Origin: Desulfatiglandales bacterium
GTDB taxonomy: Bacteria; Desulfobacterota; DSM-4660; Desulfatiglandales; Desulfatiglandaceae
Direction of reading: 5' to 3'
DNA: 64,000 bases
Assembly (NCBI GenBank): GCA_963662465.1
Contig: OY759599.1
Coordinates: 4,928,001-4,992,000 of the forward strand
Positions within the stretch are counted from its first letter, which is position 1. Every line of letters starts with the position of its first letter. The position numbers and the translations under genes are program-made. Below the pieces are notes generated by a model. The model had not been told where the DNA came from and did not search any database. It saw nothing but the letters and a program-made list of their open reading frames with translations. Shown in pieces: positions 53,268 through 62,687 of this stretch.

Positions 53268-54806
53268 TCAGGAGTTTTCCGGATCAAAATCGAGCGGGCT
53301 TCTAATCTCTTTTGCCGGCATGCTTTTGATGACATGCGTATAGATCATCGTTGTCCGAACATCGCTATGCCCCAAGAGGTCTTGGATCGTTCGGATGTCG
53401 TAGTTGGCCTGCAACAGATGGGTCGCAAAACTGTGGCGAAAAGTATGCGCGGTAACGCGTTTATACAGTTTTGCCTTTCGTACGGCATCCCTGATGGCGC
53501 GTTGCACATGACTTTCATGGATATGATATCTTTTTTTTTCTCCCGTGTCCCTAACGGTGGTAAGGGAAAGGCCGGGGAAAACCCATTGCCAAGCCAATTC
53601 TTTGGCCGCATTTTTATATTTTTTATCCAACCGCCCCTTTAAGAAGGCGCCGGCGTACCCGACATTCAAATCCTTTTCATGCAAATCGGCGGCCACATCG
53701 AATTGCATACGGATTTCCGGTATGACCGTTTCCGGCAAAGGGACGGAGCGGTCTTTTTTTCCTTTACCGTCATGTACGGTCAGCATACAACCCTCGAGGT
53801 CGAAATCAGCAAGGCGAAGGTTGAGACATTCAAACAATCGTAATCCACAACCGTAGAGCAATTTCACGATGAGGTCATACGGATGGGAAAGATGCGTCAA
53901 AACCAGATCAATTTCCCGCCTCGACAACACCACCGGCCTATACGGTTTCTGCTTTGCTCTGACAACGTTCTTTATGTCGCCAGGTTCCCGTTTCATAACA
54001 TGACGGAAAAAAAACAACAAGGCATTGAATGCTTGATTCTGAGTTGAAGCGGAGACCTTTCTTTTCACAGCCAGAAATGTCAAAAAGGCTTTGTAATCTT
54101 CGTCGGTGACCGCTGCCAACGTTTTGGATTTGGTGAAGACCTGAAACTTGCGGAGCCACATTGAATAGCTCTTCAATGTCTTGGGAGAGTACTGCAGAAC
54201 CATGATTTCATCACGGAGGCCATCAAAGGCGAATTTCCAGCTTGTGCCGATTTCAACCGGTTGATCTGATGTTTGCCGTTTATTGCAAATAGTTTTGTCA
54301 AAAAACCCAGAAGGTTTTCGATCCGCCTCTTGACAGGTAGTTTTCGATATCTCCTCTGCGAATTTTTGGTCCCCGAAACCCTGACAACCCGTCCGGGAGG
54401 GCGGGACGTCCACAGGCCCGGCTTGAACGGCATTTGAACGTTTCGCGGCGGACGCGGCAAAAACAGTTGTATCGTTATCTGGAAAGATCTCGGCCTTTTT
54501 GACGGACGTATTCTTTCGAATTGTCACATATTCGGCAACCGAGGGCCTTTCTTTGACGGTTTCATAATACAAAGAAACGGCATCCGAGGCTTGTCTGATT
54601 TGATAATCTTTCTGTTTTTTCTGATGGCGTTTTTCGATAAAATGACTGAGGCTTTCATGTTTTGAGACCGGATGATAATATTTTTGGCAAAAATCCCAGT
54701 AAAATCGAAGCCATTTTTTGTAATATGCCTGAAATCGCTTTTAAACGGGTTTCCTATCCAGAAAATGCTGAAAACGCGCTATGATGTCTGGCGGAACTGG
54801 AATCAT
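53268..54806 (-). pseudogene. intI: Integron integrase with N-terminal extension, interrupted by in-frame TAA at codon 22
   Basis: SASTQNQA, LYGCGLR, DGKGKKDR, integron-specific insert (KYKNAAKELAWQWVFP), HTFRHSFATHLL, LGHSDVRTTMIYTH; AGGAGG RBS and ATG at 54806, TAA at 54743-54741, frame continues KRFQAYYKKWLRFYWDFC... Confidence 0.88.
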
Positions 54807-55326: not shown

Positions 55327-55943
55327 TTGCGACACGAAGTCGCTTTAAATATATGTTTTCACAGAAGAATCGTGGAAACCCGGTGTTCCGCCACCGGCAT
55401 CCTAGGGAGGCATGCTGCCGTTGCGCTGATGACGGGGTGTGAAGCCCTCCCGACAATGTACCGAGGACCTTTGAAGTTGGAAAGTCGGGACAGAAAGCGT
55501 GAGTGGACTGTTCCTCTGGAAGCCTCATCCGGATTAGGGCTGGGATTGACTGATATGGTCAGTATATTCAAACACCTGCAGTATCGTAAACAGCAACAAG
55601 CCAAAGAGGCCGATAGGCTTGGACCAAACGGTGTGCGGCCAGGTCGGGAGTCTCGAACGTACGCCCGGCGCGGATGTTGTGCCGCCGGTATAGGGGGTGG
55701 ACCTAAGTCAGTTAACAGTATTTATTGCGGAACGTGGTAAGCTCGTAACATCGCCATAAAGTTTTGTGGCAAGCCAACCGTGAGGCAGGCCGTTGGTGTT
55801 GCGGGTGCAAGACGCCTTACCAAGCCAATGCCCTCCTGTAATGGGTGGAATACCGAGTTATCTCCGGCCCGAAAGGGAGCTGAATTTTGGCGGGTGCTCA
55901 TGCGTGAGATAATTTGAAGAACCTTCTGATGGGAGAATAGCAA

Positions 55944-56178: not shown

Positions 56179-58266
56179 TTATTGAAAATTAAAGACTTGT
56201 TGTTTTGAGTTTCTTGAAAGCGGGCTCTTTGGAAGCCCGGAATGAGCTGCCTTTTTTATCACTTCAGATTCAAGGTCCTTTTTTGAAATGATCCATGGAG
56301 CACCGGAACATACTCGCTTGGCGGGTAGAATCTCATGTTGTATAAGTCTCCAAACTTTGGTGCTGCCAATACCCAGCCTTTCGCTTGCTTCAGCTACCGT
56401 ATATTCTTCTCGTCGCTGCCTCTCTCCTTCATGATATACAGGGATATTATGCCTATTTCGAAATGAACGCAACCTTACCGGATTCCAGGTATATCCCTTT
56501 GTAGTCTTTGTACCCACACGGTTGAGAAAGGCCACGATGTGTTTATCAGGCATAATTCTAGCCAAATCGGATATTATCTTTTTTGTATCAACATCGGTTT
56601 TCAATGGGTAACTGGAAGACTTATTCTTCAATACCTCCAATTCCGTATGCTCACCCCCTTCCCAGTGAATGATTAATTTGATCTTTTGATCTTCCAAATA
56701 AACAACGATCTCTTTGATAACCGTCCGGATTATACGCTTCTTTAAATCCAAAGAGCAAAACGGATCATTCCATACACGAGGTAAATCTTTTGATAGATCT
56801 CTGATCTCAGTCTCCTCCTCAGGGGAAAGCGAAGGGGTGTTCGATCCCATGGCGTCAACCTCATTCTCCAATCTTGCTACCTTAACAAGAGCGTCATTCC
56901 AATCCTTCTCCAATGTAGATGCTACCAAACGATTATCAGGGTCTACTGCATTGTATTGACGTTTTGCCCGTAAAGCTTCATAACGCGCTTGTTCCAACTC
57001 CAGTTCCCGTTGCCGTTTCACTGAATCCGATTCATGGTTGATTTTCTTTATCGCCTCTAAAGAAGCTTCTAATCCTATCGGTGATAATACTTTCAAAAGA
57101 AAATCCGTAACAGCCCGGTCAACACGAAATCCACCAAATGATATACACGCCTTTCCTGTCTCGGTACCTCGTTTGCGGCTACACTCATAACGTTTATGAG
57201 TTCCATTACGGCCTTGGTATCGTACAATTAACTTTCTGCCGCAATGACCGCATCTTAACAAACCTCCAAGCAATGCCTTTCCTCCGCGAACAGATCCTCT
57301 CACCACCGGCCTTTTCTTATTTGTATTTTGAGTTAGTATCTCCATGTTATACTGGTACTCTTCCCATGTGATGTAACCTTCATGGTGATCCAATATTAAA
57401 ACGTCCCAATCCTTTTGTTCCTTACGAATACCCTTCCTCAGTCGCTTGCGCCCATTTTCAAAAGTTACCTCTGTTTTAGTCCGGCCATAGACGTAGGCGC
57501 CGGCGTAAATTGGGTTGTTCACTATATGCGACAAGGTATGAGCAGACGGTAGTTTCCACTCTATCCTACGTTCCCCTTTACCGCTGGAAACAACAGCAAT
57601 CTCAATCTGTTCATCTAAAAACCAATGATACACCCGACGAAGAGTACCATATTCCTTGAATTTCGTGAATACCAAATCAATGACTTCTTGAATTCGTTTG
57701 TCAGGATTCTTTTTCAGCTTATTATCCCTAGTCTTTATATAGGCTGCCGGTACAGTAAGATATAATTCTCCCCGCTTCGCTTTTTGTTGTATTGCCGCCT
57801 GAGAACGCTCCTTTAATAGGCTCAATTCCATTGCACTCATTTCTCCCTTTAAGCCCAGGAGCAAACGATCATTTGACACGTTTAGGTCATAAACAGCTCC
57901 TTGATCTACAAGAACCGTTTTTTTAAGTGCACAGATCTCAAGCAACGTATGCCACTCTCGACCGTTGCGGGCCAACCTCGATGATTCAATCGAGAAAATA
58001 CCCCCTATTCTTCCTTCACACACAGATGAAAGAAGATTCTGGAATCCTTTTCTGTCAACGCATCCCGATGCAGTTATTCCCAAATCACTATCTATCATCC
58101 ATATGTTTTTCTCGTTCCATCCTAATTCTTTTGCCCTTTCTACCAAGCCATATTGTAAAAGTTGGCTTTCACGATGCTGTAGAACTTGGCCCGGTGTTGA
58201 CTGACGGATATATATACATGCTTCCCGACTAATATGTTCAGCATTGATTTTATTGCTCATGCTCAT
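56179..58266 (-). CDS. Large serine recombinase (resolvase + recombinase + Zn ribbon + C-terminal HTH)
   Basis: YIRQST catalytic Ser, DLGITASG, SRLARN, NPIYAGAYVYG, LLRCGHCG, YTVAEASERLGI HTH. Confidence 0.93.
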   Translation of the reverse strand: MSMSNKINAEHISREACIYIRQSTPGQVLQHRESQLLQYGLVERAKELGWNEKNIWMIDSDLGITASGCVDRKGFQNLLSSVCEGRIGGIFSIESSRLARNGREWHTLLEICALKKTVLVDQGAVYDLNVSNDRLLLGLKGEMSAMELSLLKERSQAAIQQKAKRGELYLTVPAAYIKTRDNKLKKNPDKRIQEVIDLVFTKFKEYGTLRRVYHWFLDEQIEIAVVSSGKGERRIEWKLPSAHTLSHIVNNPIYAGAYVYGRTKTEVTFENGRKRLRKGIRKEQKDWDVLILDHHEGYITWEEYQYNMEILTQNTNKKRPVVRGSVRGGKALLGGLLRCGHCGRKLIVRYQGRNGTHKRYECSRKRGTETGKACISFGGFRVDRAVTDFLLKVLSPIGLEASLEAIKKINHESDSVKRQRELELEQARYEALRAKRQYNAVDPDNRLVASTLEKDWNDALVKVARLENEVDAMGSNTPSLSPEEETEIRDLSKDLPRVWNDPFCSLDLKKRIIRTVIKEIVVYLEDQKIKLIIHWEGGEHTELEVLKNKSSSYPLKTDVDTKKIISDLARIMPDKHIVAFLNRVGTKTTKGYTWNPVRLRSFRNRHNIPVYHEGERQRREEYTVAEASERLGIGSTKVWRLIQHEILPAKRVCSGAPWIISKKDLESEVIKKAAHSGLPKSPLSRNSKQQVFNFQ

Positions 58267-58283
58267 TTCCACCTTTCTTTTCT

Positions 58284-59441: not shown

Positions 59442-59732
59442 ATGAGTATTCAATTTGAATGGGACAAAAATAAAGCGAAAACGAATCTCAAGAAACACAA
59501 AGTTAGTTTTGATGAAGCAAGTACTGTTTTCAGTGACCCATTAGCTTTGATATTTGATGATGAAGAACACTCTACGTCAGAAGAGTTACGTGAAATCATC
59601 ATCGGAAATTCTGAGAAAAGACGACTGTTATTGACCAGTTTCACAGAACGACTAGAAGATATTGTGCGGATAATTAGCTCACGTTTAGCGACAAACCATG
59701 AACGAAAGGATTATGAAGAAAATGCCTACTAA
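59442..59732 (+). CDS. brnT: BrnT family toxin (ribonuclease)
   Basis: FEWDKNKAKTNLKKHKVSFDEASTVFSDP, RIISSRLATNHERKDYE. Confidence 0.92.
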   Translation: MSIQFEWDKNKAKTNLKKHKVSFDEASTVFSDPLALIFDDEEHSTSEELREIIIGNSEKRRLLLTSFTERLEDIVRIISSRLATNHERKDYEENAY

Positions 59733-59985
59733 TTCAGCAATTGACGATTTAAAACCAGAATATAAGTTTGATTATAGTAAAGCACGTCCGAATCGTTTTG
59801 CTAAACGAGTCACTGAGGATAGTGTTATTGTGGTGCTTGACCCTGATGTAGCACAGGTTTTTACTTCTGCGGAGGCAGTCAATGCTGTTTTACGAGCGCT
59901 CATTCAAAACATGCCTAATGTTACTATTCCAGCACAAGTTACAGAGGTTCTCACGGCAAACAAACATCATGGTTCAATCCGCTAA
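59713..59985 (+). CDS. BrnA-like antitoxin
   Basis: LKPEYKFDYSKARPNRFA, VVLDPDVAQVF...VNAVLRAL; overlaps the toxin stop; its TAA lies in the attC R'' box. Confidence 0.85.
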   Translation: MKKMPTNSAIDDLKPEYKFDYSKARPNRFAKRVTEDSVIVVLDPDVAQVFTSAEAVNAVLRALIQNMPNVTIPAQVTEVLTANKHHGSIR

Positions 59986-60673
59986 CCAAGCGCTCCTCGC
60001 GCCGAGGTAAGCCCGAAACCTTGGGAACCCGCGTAAATCGGGATGAAATTGGTTATTGTTATCCAGTGGGTGATCGCGGAAAGCGAAAGTCCCACCCGAG
60101 CAGAGGTTAGCCACCAGCTCGGTAGTGAAGTCCACGTGCAAACCGGGTAACCGGCGTACGGAGCTGGACGGAACGAGAATCCAGGCTGCGTATTGAGCCC
60201 CGAAAAATGTATAGTTGTGGTCATTGGATAACCCTGTGAAATCAGGGGAACGCCGACGCTTTGGAGCAAGCGGAAGACAGCAGACCTTGATGCGCCATGG
60301 CGAGTGTTGAGGTTGCCACCGGGGTCTTAGACCAGGGCATGGATTCAAATGGATAGCTCGGGAACTCGGGAGAACCAAAAGTTTCCTTGTTTAGAGACCC
60401 GGAAGATGAGGGGCGCCGGGAGATTAAGAGCCCTGGCGTTTGCGGGCTGCTTTCACCTGCAAATGAGTCGCAAGAAACACAAAGAAAGAAAGCAGGCAGG
60501 GTATCAGGTGTGGACAGCGAAAAGCGAACGTGCCTGAGAGGGACTTTTGGTAGTCTTAGCGGAACATAGTACCGATGGCGCCGAGGATGGTGCTGGGAAG
60601 GTGGGGAAGTGGCGCCCAAGCGACCCACTGTAGGGAAGGTGAAGCAGGGTATAACGTTTTTCTGATAGGAACT

Positions 60674-62374
60674 ATGGAAGACACTCAGAGGTCACAACCC
60701 ATATCAATGGAAAATCAGGAAATTGCGGAGCAGGTTGCCCAGAAGTCCGAAGAACCGAGTACACATGGTCTCCCCGTACTGGTCAGTGAATCAAGTCTTG
60801 CCCGGGTAGCAATACGGGGGATGGCCGATTCGCAAACGGTGTTCTCATCACTTGCGCATTGGACCGACTTTGATTTATTGAAAAAGTCATTCAAGGCATT
60901 GAGTAAGAATGAGTCAACCGGAGTTGATAGGATAACGGCGAAGGACTATGCTGTCGATCTTAATGAAAACCTCTATAAACTGTACGAACGGCTGCAAAGA
61001 GGGCAGTACGTTGCATCTCCGGTCAAGCGCATATGGGTGGACAAGGAAGGCGGTAAAAAGAGACCGATAGGGATTCCGGCGTTGGAGGACAAGATTGTCC
61101 AGAAAGCGGTGGCGACTTTGCTGGGGCTGGCTTACGAACCCTTGTTTTATGAAGTTTCCCATGGATTTCGGGAAGGTCACAGTCAACACCTGGCGCTGAA
61201 AGAACTTCGTGAAAAGTGTGCCGGTTTGAACATAAACTGGATTTTGAGCGCGGATATTACGGGACTATTTGACAATATAGATCACTCATTATTACGAGAA
61301 ATACTGCGTAAAAGGGTGAATGATGGCGGCATCCTGCGGCTAATCGGCAAGTGGTTGAACGCCGGGGTCGTGGAGGGTGACGAAACCATATACCCTGAGA
61401 AAGGAACGCCTCAAGGCGGGTTATGCAAAGCTTTGCATAACCCGCCTTATGCCAAGTTGCCGATTATGCAAAGTAAACCGCTAAAGCTACCAGATTTCCA
61501 ACACCTTCACTGAGTTTACTTTGCATAATATCACGGGTATCTCAAACTTGAAATCCAATTAAACGATGCAGCATCCTTGGTTTATTTTGGATAAAATGAT
61601 CTGGTTTTTTTCCGACAAATGATTTTGTGAGCTTTTCGCTCAGTCATCATTAGCAAAGATTATGCTAAGTAAATCAAAAAGAAACCCTTGAATTCCAATG
61701 CGTTTTATGGCTTACTTTGCATAATTACTTTCTTTGCATAAGGCGGCGTCATTTCACCGGTGCTGAGTAATATATTTTTGCACGAGGTGCTGGACGGCTG
61801 GTTTGTCAAAGAAGTTGAACCGAGGCTGAAGGGGAAGTGTTTTTTGGTCCGCTTTGCGGATGATTTCATAATCGGGTTTCAATTGAAGTCTGATGCTGAA
61901 CGGTTGATGGCAGTTTTGCCCAAGCGTTTTGAGAAATACAAGCTAAGCCTTCACCCGGGAAAGACCAGATTGATAGCCTTTGGAAGGCCAATGGCCGGTG
62001 CAAAGCGTGAGACCTTTGATTTCTTAGGTTTTACCTACTACTGGGGCAGGTCCTTAAAGGGGCGGTGGGTGATTAAGAAGAAGACGGCTGGTAAGCGTTT
62101 AAGGCGTTTTCTGAGTATGACGTGGAGTTGGTGTAAGGAGAGCCGCCATGATCCCATGAAGGAGCAGCATGAGATTTTATGCAGCAAACTTCGGGGGTTC
62201 TATCAATATTTTGGTGTACGCTCGAACTACAAAGCACTTGAAGTGGCGTATGAATACGCGATGAAGGCCTGGCGTTACTGGCTAAGCCGGAGGAGTTCCG
62301 ACGGCCTGGTGTTGTTTGCAGACCTGCAAAGGAGCCACCCACTGCCAATTCCGAAAATAGTCCACGGATTCTGA
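60674..62374 (+). pseudogene. ltrA: Intron-encoded reverse transcriptase/maturase, interrupted at GTPQGG
   Basis: RPIGIPALEDKIVQ, ADITGLFDNIDH, GTPQGG | VISPVLSNIFLH, RFADD, FDFLGF; no endonuclease domain. Confidence 0.9.
61420..61746. mobile_element. 327-bp non-autonomous element with multiple TTATGCAAAG sites (RIT-like ends)
   Basis: AAGGCGG direct repeat (61413-61419, 61740-61746); 36-bp perfect palindrome 61413-61448; terminal IR CCGCCTTATGC(C/A)AAG. Confidence 0.8.
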
Positions 62375-62687
62375 AACCACTGGGGCAGCAAAGTTATTCG
62401 CCGGTCGGGGTGTCGCCTGGCTGGTTGATGGTCTGGTAAAAAGGACCTGAACCGAGAAACCGGATGAGGGAAATCTTCACGTCCGAATCTGCGGGGGGAG
62501 CGCCGGGCAACCGGTGCTTCTACCCGGAACCAGACGCCTGATACTTGGGCGGTCCTAGCGAGGGGGGCCGGAGGAGGCGCTGGTGAGCTTGTCGTTCCTA
62601 TAATGCACATCCTTTCGCTTGACTCCTTTGGAGATTTTTTCTAATCTCATGCTACAATCTACGCTTTTGCAAGGGGGGAATCGGATC

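Follow-up and report, generated by a model that had tools for sequence, protein, structure and literature searches.

The 327-bp insert that splits a group II intron reverse transcriptase (RT) gene in the 64,000-nucleotide stretch of Desulfatiglandales bacterium DNA analyzed here (the window) is very likely a gene-less RIT (recombinases-in-trio) derivative, belonging to a RIT clade that targets the QG/G motif of RTs (the stroke marks the split) and probably moved by RitA, RitB, and RitC acting in trans from a full-length relative. Its broader identity as a non-autonomous RIT derivative can be assigned with high confidence, since the insert lacks the genes and the length of a RIT and has the ends and the kind of target that characterize these elements.

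Structure of the insert and its host gene

The features of the host intron, the split gene, and the insert are as follows (positions are those of the window).

59997..62528, plus strand: host group II intron, limits approximate, inserted into an integron attC site (top strand)
60575..61420, plus strand: 5′ half of the RT gene, ending ...GTPQGG (longest ORF in the ORF list, true start codon uncertain; Pfam RVT_1 2-123)
61415..61420, plus strand: spacer S1, GGCGGG, the left crossover hexamer, probably imported with the element
61421..61440, no strand: 20-bp palindrome TTATGCAAAGCTTTGCATAA, formed by two recombinase arms set back to back and placed toward the RT 5′ end in every whole copy, with the 8+4+8 design of the IS66-targeting RIT of this genome
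61441..61446, minus strand: spacer S2, GGCGGG on that strand, a second recombination site, intact, that separates the palindrome from the element end and runs opposite to S1 and S3
61447..61580, plus strand: ritC-side RIT end, with arms at 61447 and 61464 and an inverted arm at 61519 (match to loci L078 and L039)
61619..61741, plus strand: ritA-side RIT end, with an arm at 61660 and inverted arms at 61715 and 61732 (match to L078 and L039)
61742..61747, plus strand: spacer S3, GGCGGC, the right crossover hexamer, likely the RT's own two Gly codons
61748..62374, plus strand: 3′ half of the RT gene, VISPVLSN...FADD..., same frame, no stops (Pfam RVT_1 124-204)

The host intron was recognized by an Rfam match (group-II-D1D4-6 at 60086-60334) and by a weak Intron_gpII domain V/VI match below the gathering score (62455-62529), and its limits were drawn from comparison with 15 uninterrupted attC sites. 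Judged against empty attC sites, the intron lies about 13 bases into the attC (59984-59996 and 62529-62596), beginning with TCGCG and ending with GGA; the usual group II intron ends are GTGCG and AY. Three related intron starts occur in the genome at the same attC position. The window also contains a gene for an integron-integrase-like tyrosine recombinase (53268-54572), a second group II intron fragment (55379-55540), a large serine recombinase gene (56179-58272), and a BrnT-type toxin-antitoxin cassette (59442-59985).

An earlier reading, made from the sequence alone, had the RT breaking at GTPQGG and resuming in frame, and removal of the 327 bp from the sequence indeed yields one open frame (...GTPQGG-VISPVLSN...FADD...), with the two halves occupying adjoining positions of the Pfam RVT_1 profile (2-123 and 124-204). 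Read-through from the 5′ half stops within ~40 codons in either orientation of the insert, and either orientation is predicted to truncate the RT, with loss of its catalytic and maturase parts. With the maturase part removed, the intron would be unable to move by itself as long as the element stays in place.

The insert has a GC content of 37%, compared to 49.5% for the genome. Exact copies of TTATGCAAAG lie on the plus strand at 61421 and 61464 and on the minus strand at 61431, 61519, 61715, and 61732, and one-mismatch copies lie at 61447 and 61660; these are the eight sites previously listed, one of them misplaced by a base (61715 rather than 61716). Sites of the form TTATGC(A)AAG number 8 in 334 bp (61421-61741), whereas 2000 base shuffles of the insert gave 0.04 on average and never more than 1, and 13 sites of the TTATGCAAAG type occur in the whole window where 4.6 are expected. 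The terminal inverted repeat spans 38 bp at 79% identity (61442-61479/61709-61746), and the 16-bp inverted repeat at 61463-61478/61514-61529 is as described before. No ATG-started ORF of ≥25 aa is present in the insert, consistent with the earlier statement that it holds no credible gene, and a search for a small protein or RNA found no ORF common to all cores, no Rfam match, and no promoter-like site.

Read from the RT 5′ side, the order is a Gln codon, S1, the palindrome, S2, a 295-bp core (61447-61741), S3, and the rest of the RT. The core thus has three arms at each end, the palindrome has two, and the element has three 6-bp spacers; S2 stands between two facing arms, which we take to be the layout of an intact tyrosine-recombinase site. 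Two features of the sequence-only reading take on a different meaning in this layout. The 36-bp palindrome at 61413-61448 is perfect and correctly placed, but it is the 20-bp element palindrome between two equal spacers plus flanking AA/TT, and it is imperfect in four of the seven whole copies in the genome; it is an inherited part of the element beside a third spacer and not a product of fusing target and end. Likewise, AAGGCGG is present twice without being a target-site duplication, since the left AA belongs to the Gln codon, the right AA belongs to the element end, and the flanking hexamers, GGCGGG and GGCGGC, are unequal.

Copies in the genome and relatives elsewhere

Eight copies of the mini-element (seven whole, one partial) were identified in this genome, all of them in group II RT genes at PQG/G, and the occupied genes fall in three RT families. 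Each of the seven whole copies has its palindrome toward the 5′ end of the RT; the partial copy has lost the palindrome, and part of its RT is missing too. The core is oriented as in the window in five copies and in the opposite direction in three, including the partial one. There are three types of core, 15-20% apart and colinear, with one common internal junction. The 295-bp core of the window shows no difference from that of a copy in an unrelated RT family, and one core is found unchanged in both orientations, which points to recent movement of the mini-element as a unit.

These observations bear on the possibility that the copies are immobile scars, left either by full RITs that each lost their genes or by one insertion that was multiplied through gene conversion or carried along passively by the introns. 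Such an origin, quite unlikely overall, would suit one RT subfamily in which all six members are occupied, the five compared differing by 3-13 bases in 600 upstream, and it draws some support from mini interiors that mostly do not align across genomes, as expected of repeated deletion. The identical core in two unrelated RT families largely refutes it, however, and it is further opposed by the colinearity and shared junction of the three divergent core types, by near-identical introns that bear different cores, orientations, and spacers, and by mini-elements 74-82% similar in other genomes (L093, L009) and other samples (X3, X4, X9).

Empty RT sites number 25 in the genome, including all 13 of one family, and are mostly near-identical young copies, which we infer to have spread after the helper was lost. 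A search for that helper found no cognate in the genome: its PF00589 matches number 58, with several trios among them, but the best identity to proteins of the RT-targeting clade was 25-42%, no cognate recombinase matched at E<=1e-90, and the three trios tested lie outside the RT-site RitC clade in a quick tree. Across 208 other genomes of the order, the palindrome pattern gave one match (G002), without the other arms, which looks like chance. When the RitC of L078 was compared to 40 relatives, most of them fragmented assemblies, two matched at 45% identity, outside the 57-100% range of the clade, and neither the palindrome nor paired ends were found at those two loci.

The genome does house an IS66-targeting RIT in four copies (G000:C1:1582171-1585616, 2491142-2494586, 4393491-4401668, and 7140202-7143647), which has TTATGCCG arms and the same palindrome-plus-spacer end design as the mini-element. 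Its copies occur in both orientations, and one is interrupted by another element. Two more palindromes of this type lie at 5169960 and 4723182. Separately, trios nested inside other trios in opposite orientation were observed at G000:C1:280858-287139 and 7044335-7053384.

To survey relatives, GTDB genomes were scanned with a pattern of palindrome, 6 nt, and end arm that left the target unspecified. At least 115 loci were recovered, with 118 oriented matches among those listed. Among the matches listed, 56 of these 118 end in frame in QG[G/S/A], 49 have a tblastn RT match just upstream, and the 56 include 16 ritA-first and 17 ritC-first orientations. The 80 loci with record titles come from Proteobacteria, Desulfobacterota, Bacillota, Bacteroidota, Chloroflexota, Chlamydiota, and others. 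Another match lies in an IS91 transposase gene (L045), and further ones, read by eye, presumably lie in IS66 transposase genes on the opposite strand. A target-biased metagenome scan added 69 stretches.

At least 10 RT-site loci, from 8 genomes, carry genes for all three integrases (ritABC) flanked by these ends; one locus is degraded. These long forms measure 3311-3707 bp and encode only three PF00589 proteins, of 302-427 aa. The mini-element matches their ritC-side end at 82% over 164 nt (L078) and 84% over 138 nt (L039), and their ritA-side end at 80% over 128 nt (L078) and 87% over 130 nt (L039), so the resemblance to RIT ends proposed earlier holds on both sides. Set against the properties that define a RIT, three adjacent, overlapping tyrosine-recombinase genes and a length of ~3.5 kb are found only in the long relatives and not in the 327-bp insert, whereas the insert does have the terminal repeat with palindrome (38 bp at 79%, 20 bp, and ends at 80-87%) and near-identical copies in conserved mobile-element genes (8/8 in group II RT). 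The earlier proposal of a non-autonomous derivative aimed at RT codons is upheld by all eight copies and by ritABC partners at the same codons; the longer copies that it called for exist elsewhere, with the same ends at the same codons, and none was found in this genome. Short forms of 298-577 bp that are gene-less or almost so turn up repeatedly; because their interiors mostly do not align across genomes, miniatures evidently arose by deletion more than once.

The RitC proteins of 26 RT-site elements, at 57-100% identity, form one clade (SH-aLRT 95 in a quick tree from which seven duplicate or near-identical trios were left out). Identity to the nearest non-RT elements is 47-48% for RitC, compared to 29-31% for RitA and RitB, suggesting that RitC, the most conserved of the trio across target classes, may be the protein that binds the shared arms.

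Several unusual arrangements were also encountered. L013:5001-5052 and L056:5001-5052 hold a 52-bp form with two palindromes and a spacer but no core, which could have arisen when the whole core was lost and the two terminal arms were joined; that of L013 splits an RT at QG/G. Metagenome contigs L139, L143, L146, L171, L193, and L202 have a palindrome at both element ends, and in L143, L146, L193, and L202 the RT 5′ halves face inward from both sides; these contigs represent either misassembly or recombination between opposite copies. L205 (NZ_CP039728.1, a Bacillus sp. S3 plasmid, FAY30_RS26930-26945) is a full RIT like those of the RT clade, flanked on each side by an RT 3′ half and lacking a palindrome, reflecting either a reciprocal rearrangement or a second integration through S2. 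L016 and L034 represent a RIT that is more distantly related but has a similar palindrome; it is inserted into another type of RT, on the opposite strand, at P-I-G-N, a motif located in the same RT region as PQGG.

Another explanation to be weighed is a domesticated on/off switch, in which the host or the intron keeps the mini-element and its excision or inversion turns the RT on. Exact restoration of the frame by excision is compatible with this, as any RT-type spacer codes for G-G, G-S, or G-A, and the RT halves are free of stops both in the window and in five occupied copies belonging to another family. However, since the ORF ends within ~40 codons in both orientations, inversion switches nothing; the genome search gave no cognate recombinase; one copy is missing its palindrome along with some of the RT; and intact RT genes are plentiful, given the 25 empty sites. 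Private codon changes in the occupied copies comprise 20 that alter the amino acid and 18 that are silent, a ratio that differs from the 7:21 between the occupied consensus and the nearest empty subfamily (Fisher p 0.04) but not significantly from the 16:26 between empty copies (p 0.26). This raised share of amino acid changes lends mild support to decay over a kept switch, which is, on the evidence as a whole, very improbable.

Spacers, target motif, and a proposed route of insertion

Among the 31 elements with both ends, S1 equals S3 in 13 and differs from it in 18, and all three spacers differ in 9; S1 differs from S2 in 77 of 122 RT-site elements. (Rows L013-, L056-, L064-, and L092-, second readings or off-frame, were left out, as was L171+ from the pair count.) A MITE mobilized by a DDE transposase with a 7-bp target-site duplication, as the short, gene-less, multicopy form with terminal inverted repeats and an apparent AAGGCGG duplication might suggest, is refuted by the unequal hexamers in the window and in those 18 elements and by long forms with matching ends that encode three tyrosine recombinases and no DDE partner; we also know of no place in DDE transposition for the extra palindrome and third spacer.

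In four of four cases with unequal spacers and an empty allele at hand, S3 is native and S1 foreign. The cases are L010 and L084 (flanks identical at 120/120 positions to those of four empty sites), the copy at G000:C1:3338468 in this genome (by sister subfamilies), and the IS66 RIT at 1585616, also in this genome; two of the four come from one genome and one from another RIT clade, and not all are independent. Foreign S1 hexamers equal the S3 of other copies within one genome: GGCGGC, S3 in the window, recurs as the foreign S1 of G000:C1:3338468, a copy 98% identical; L010 and L084 have as S1 the hexamer that is S3 in L023; and L060 and L078 match reciprocally. L067, whose S1 matches a related empty site at a flank identity of only 93/120, may be a counter-case. 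For the copy at 3215908 the empty sites differ by 52/40 bases, and searches of G211 and G213 found no empty alleles for L009, L039, and L029. An uninterrupted allele of the window is present in contigs of two other studies (X3, X9), its joint having seven shared letters, and this empty joint suggests that S3 is native in the window as well; in contigs of run X1, the probable source sample, no empty joint was seen, which is evidence neither way. Whether the footprint is strictly one-sided is, on this record, an even call.

A need for homology at spacer positions 1-2 was considered, given 0 mismatches there in 77 unequal RT-type pairs, and was rejected: these positions are an invariant Gly codon, they are fixed by the pattern in the metagenome scan, and the IS66 RIT differs at position 1. 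The information in the flanks sits at positions that fix the amino acid, with the left 4-fold third positions carrying 0.02-0.10 bit. The derived motif occurs 26 times in the 8.2-Mb genome and 25 of these are the empty RT sites, a count that is circular in that the motif was built from RT sites; with that limit, the DNA sequence carries enough information to specify the target. The target is thus likely to be read as a codon-patterned DNA motif.

The following route would accommodate these features. RitA, RitB, and RitC tyrosine recombinases would be supplied in trans by a full-length relative, of which none was found in this genome. On leaving, the element would form a circle with the palindrome between two equivalent sites, each made of an end arm, a 6-bp spacer, and a palindrome arm. 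Recombination of either circle site with the target would produce both core orientations while always placing the palindrome 5′, and tolerance of spacer mismatches at the crossover would keep the gene's own hexamer on the right and deposit that of the earlier site on the left. The two-site circle is the simplest model and is somewhat favored, although inversion in place between S2 and S3 could equally give both orientations; neither a circle nor an excision or inversion event was observed in the contigs.

Comparison with known elements and implications

The mini-element has points in common with several classes of mobile DNA. MITEs are non-autonomous, ends-only IS derivatives that depend on a helper, and the gene-less ends and repeated internal deletion are alike; in contrast, here the helper would be a trio of tyrosine recombinases, and the target is not truly duplicated. 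Tn916 and CTnDOT, which are conjugative and loosely targeted, cross over across mismatched 6-bp overlaps and are expected to leave a foreign hexamer on either side. The mismatched overlaps are shared with their coupling sequences, whereas the foreign hexamer of the RITs examined here was on the left in four of four direct cases.

Closer parallels are found in SE elements and Tn554, in which a 6-bp spacer travels from the donor site to the new one and always ends up on the same side; SE elements have genes for IntA, Tfp, IntB, and Srap and one joint site (PMC10214605). Compared with that description, the RT-site elements share tyrosine recombinases and target specificity, may leave a similar one-sided 6-bp footprint (four of four direct cases fit, not all independent and one of them the IS66 RIT, while L067 may run the other way), and differ in long forms with three integrases only, a second intact site with a palindrome, and insertion in either orientation. 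The SE/Tn554 gene set (IntA, Tfp, IntB, Srap, or TnpA/B/C) is not the one carried by the long RT-site forms.

RITs themselves are known. They are ritA-ritB-ritC elements of ~3.5 kb with a terminal inverted repeat and a palindrome, present in several copies per genome (Van Houdt 2012, PMC3414803); the repeats measure ~28-34 bp with the palindrome adjoining (PMC3414803, PMC10214605), and insertions are described in radC, IS66 tnpA, and a Tn6049-like transposase gene (PMC3414803; Janssen 2010, PMC2864759; Nielsen 2017, PMC5737581; Smyshlyaev 2021, PMC8138268). The mini-element agrees with these accounts in its terminal inverted repeat with palindrome, its multiple copies, and its insertion into mobile-element genes, and it differs in being gene-less, 327 bp long, and directed to the RT QG/G motif. 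Van Houdt 2012 (PMC3414803) reports no convincing multi-site structure in RITs, whereas the mini-element has three arms at either end, two more in the palindrome, and three spacers. Why RITs need three recombinases is treated there as open (PMC3414803), and as of 2023 their transposition had not been reproduced in the laboratory, according to a later account (PMC10214605). No RT-targeting or gene-less RIT was found in the literature covered, within which the RT QG/G target and the gene-less form are new for RITs; the main survey (Ricker 2013) and supplements fall outside that scope, and such elements could be in print.

Thus, one genetic parasite breaks another, a RIT miniature splitting an intron RT, and this offers a route by which another mobile element holds group II introns in check. 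For annotation, it explains truncated RT fragments running PQGG-LCKALH. The mini-element would also define the sufficient DNA of a RIT, namely two ends, a palindrome, and three spacers, plus a precise target; its natural spacer variants give a testable crossover rule, and the system represents a site-specific integrase whose target is fixed by protein-coding constraint. More tentatively, the clade may be a dedicated, cross-phylum predator of group II introns, with a wobble-blind motif at the most conserved codons of the RT, a two-site circle that leaves a one-sided 6-bp record of previous hosts, and a requirement for three recombinases that would follow from a division of labor, with RitC on the arms and RitA and RitB each on one target half. 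If this reading is true, the 327-bp miniatures would be ready-made minimal substrates that can saturate an intron subfamily.
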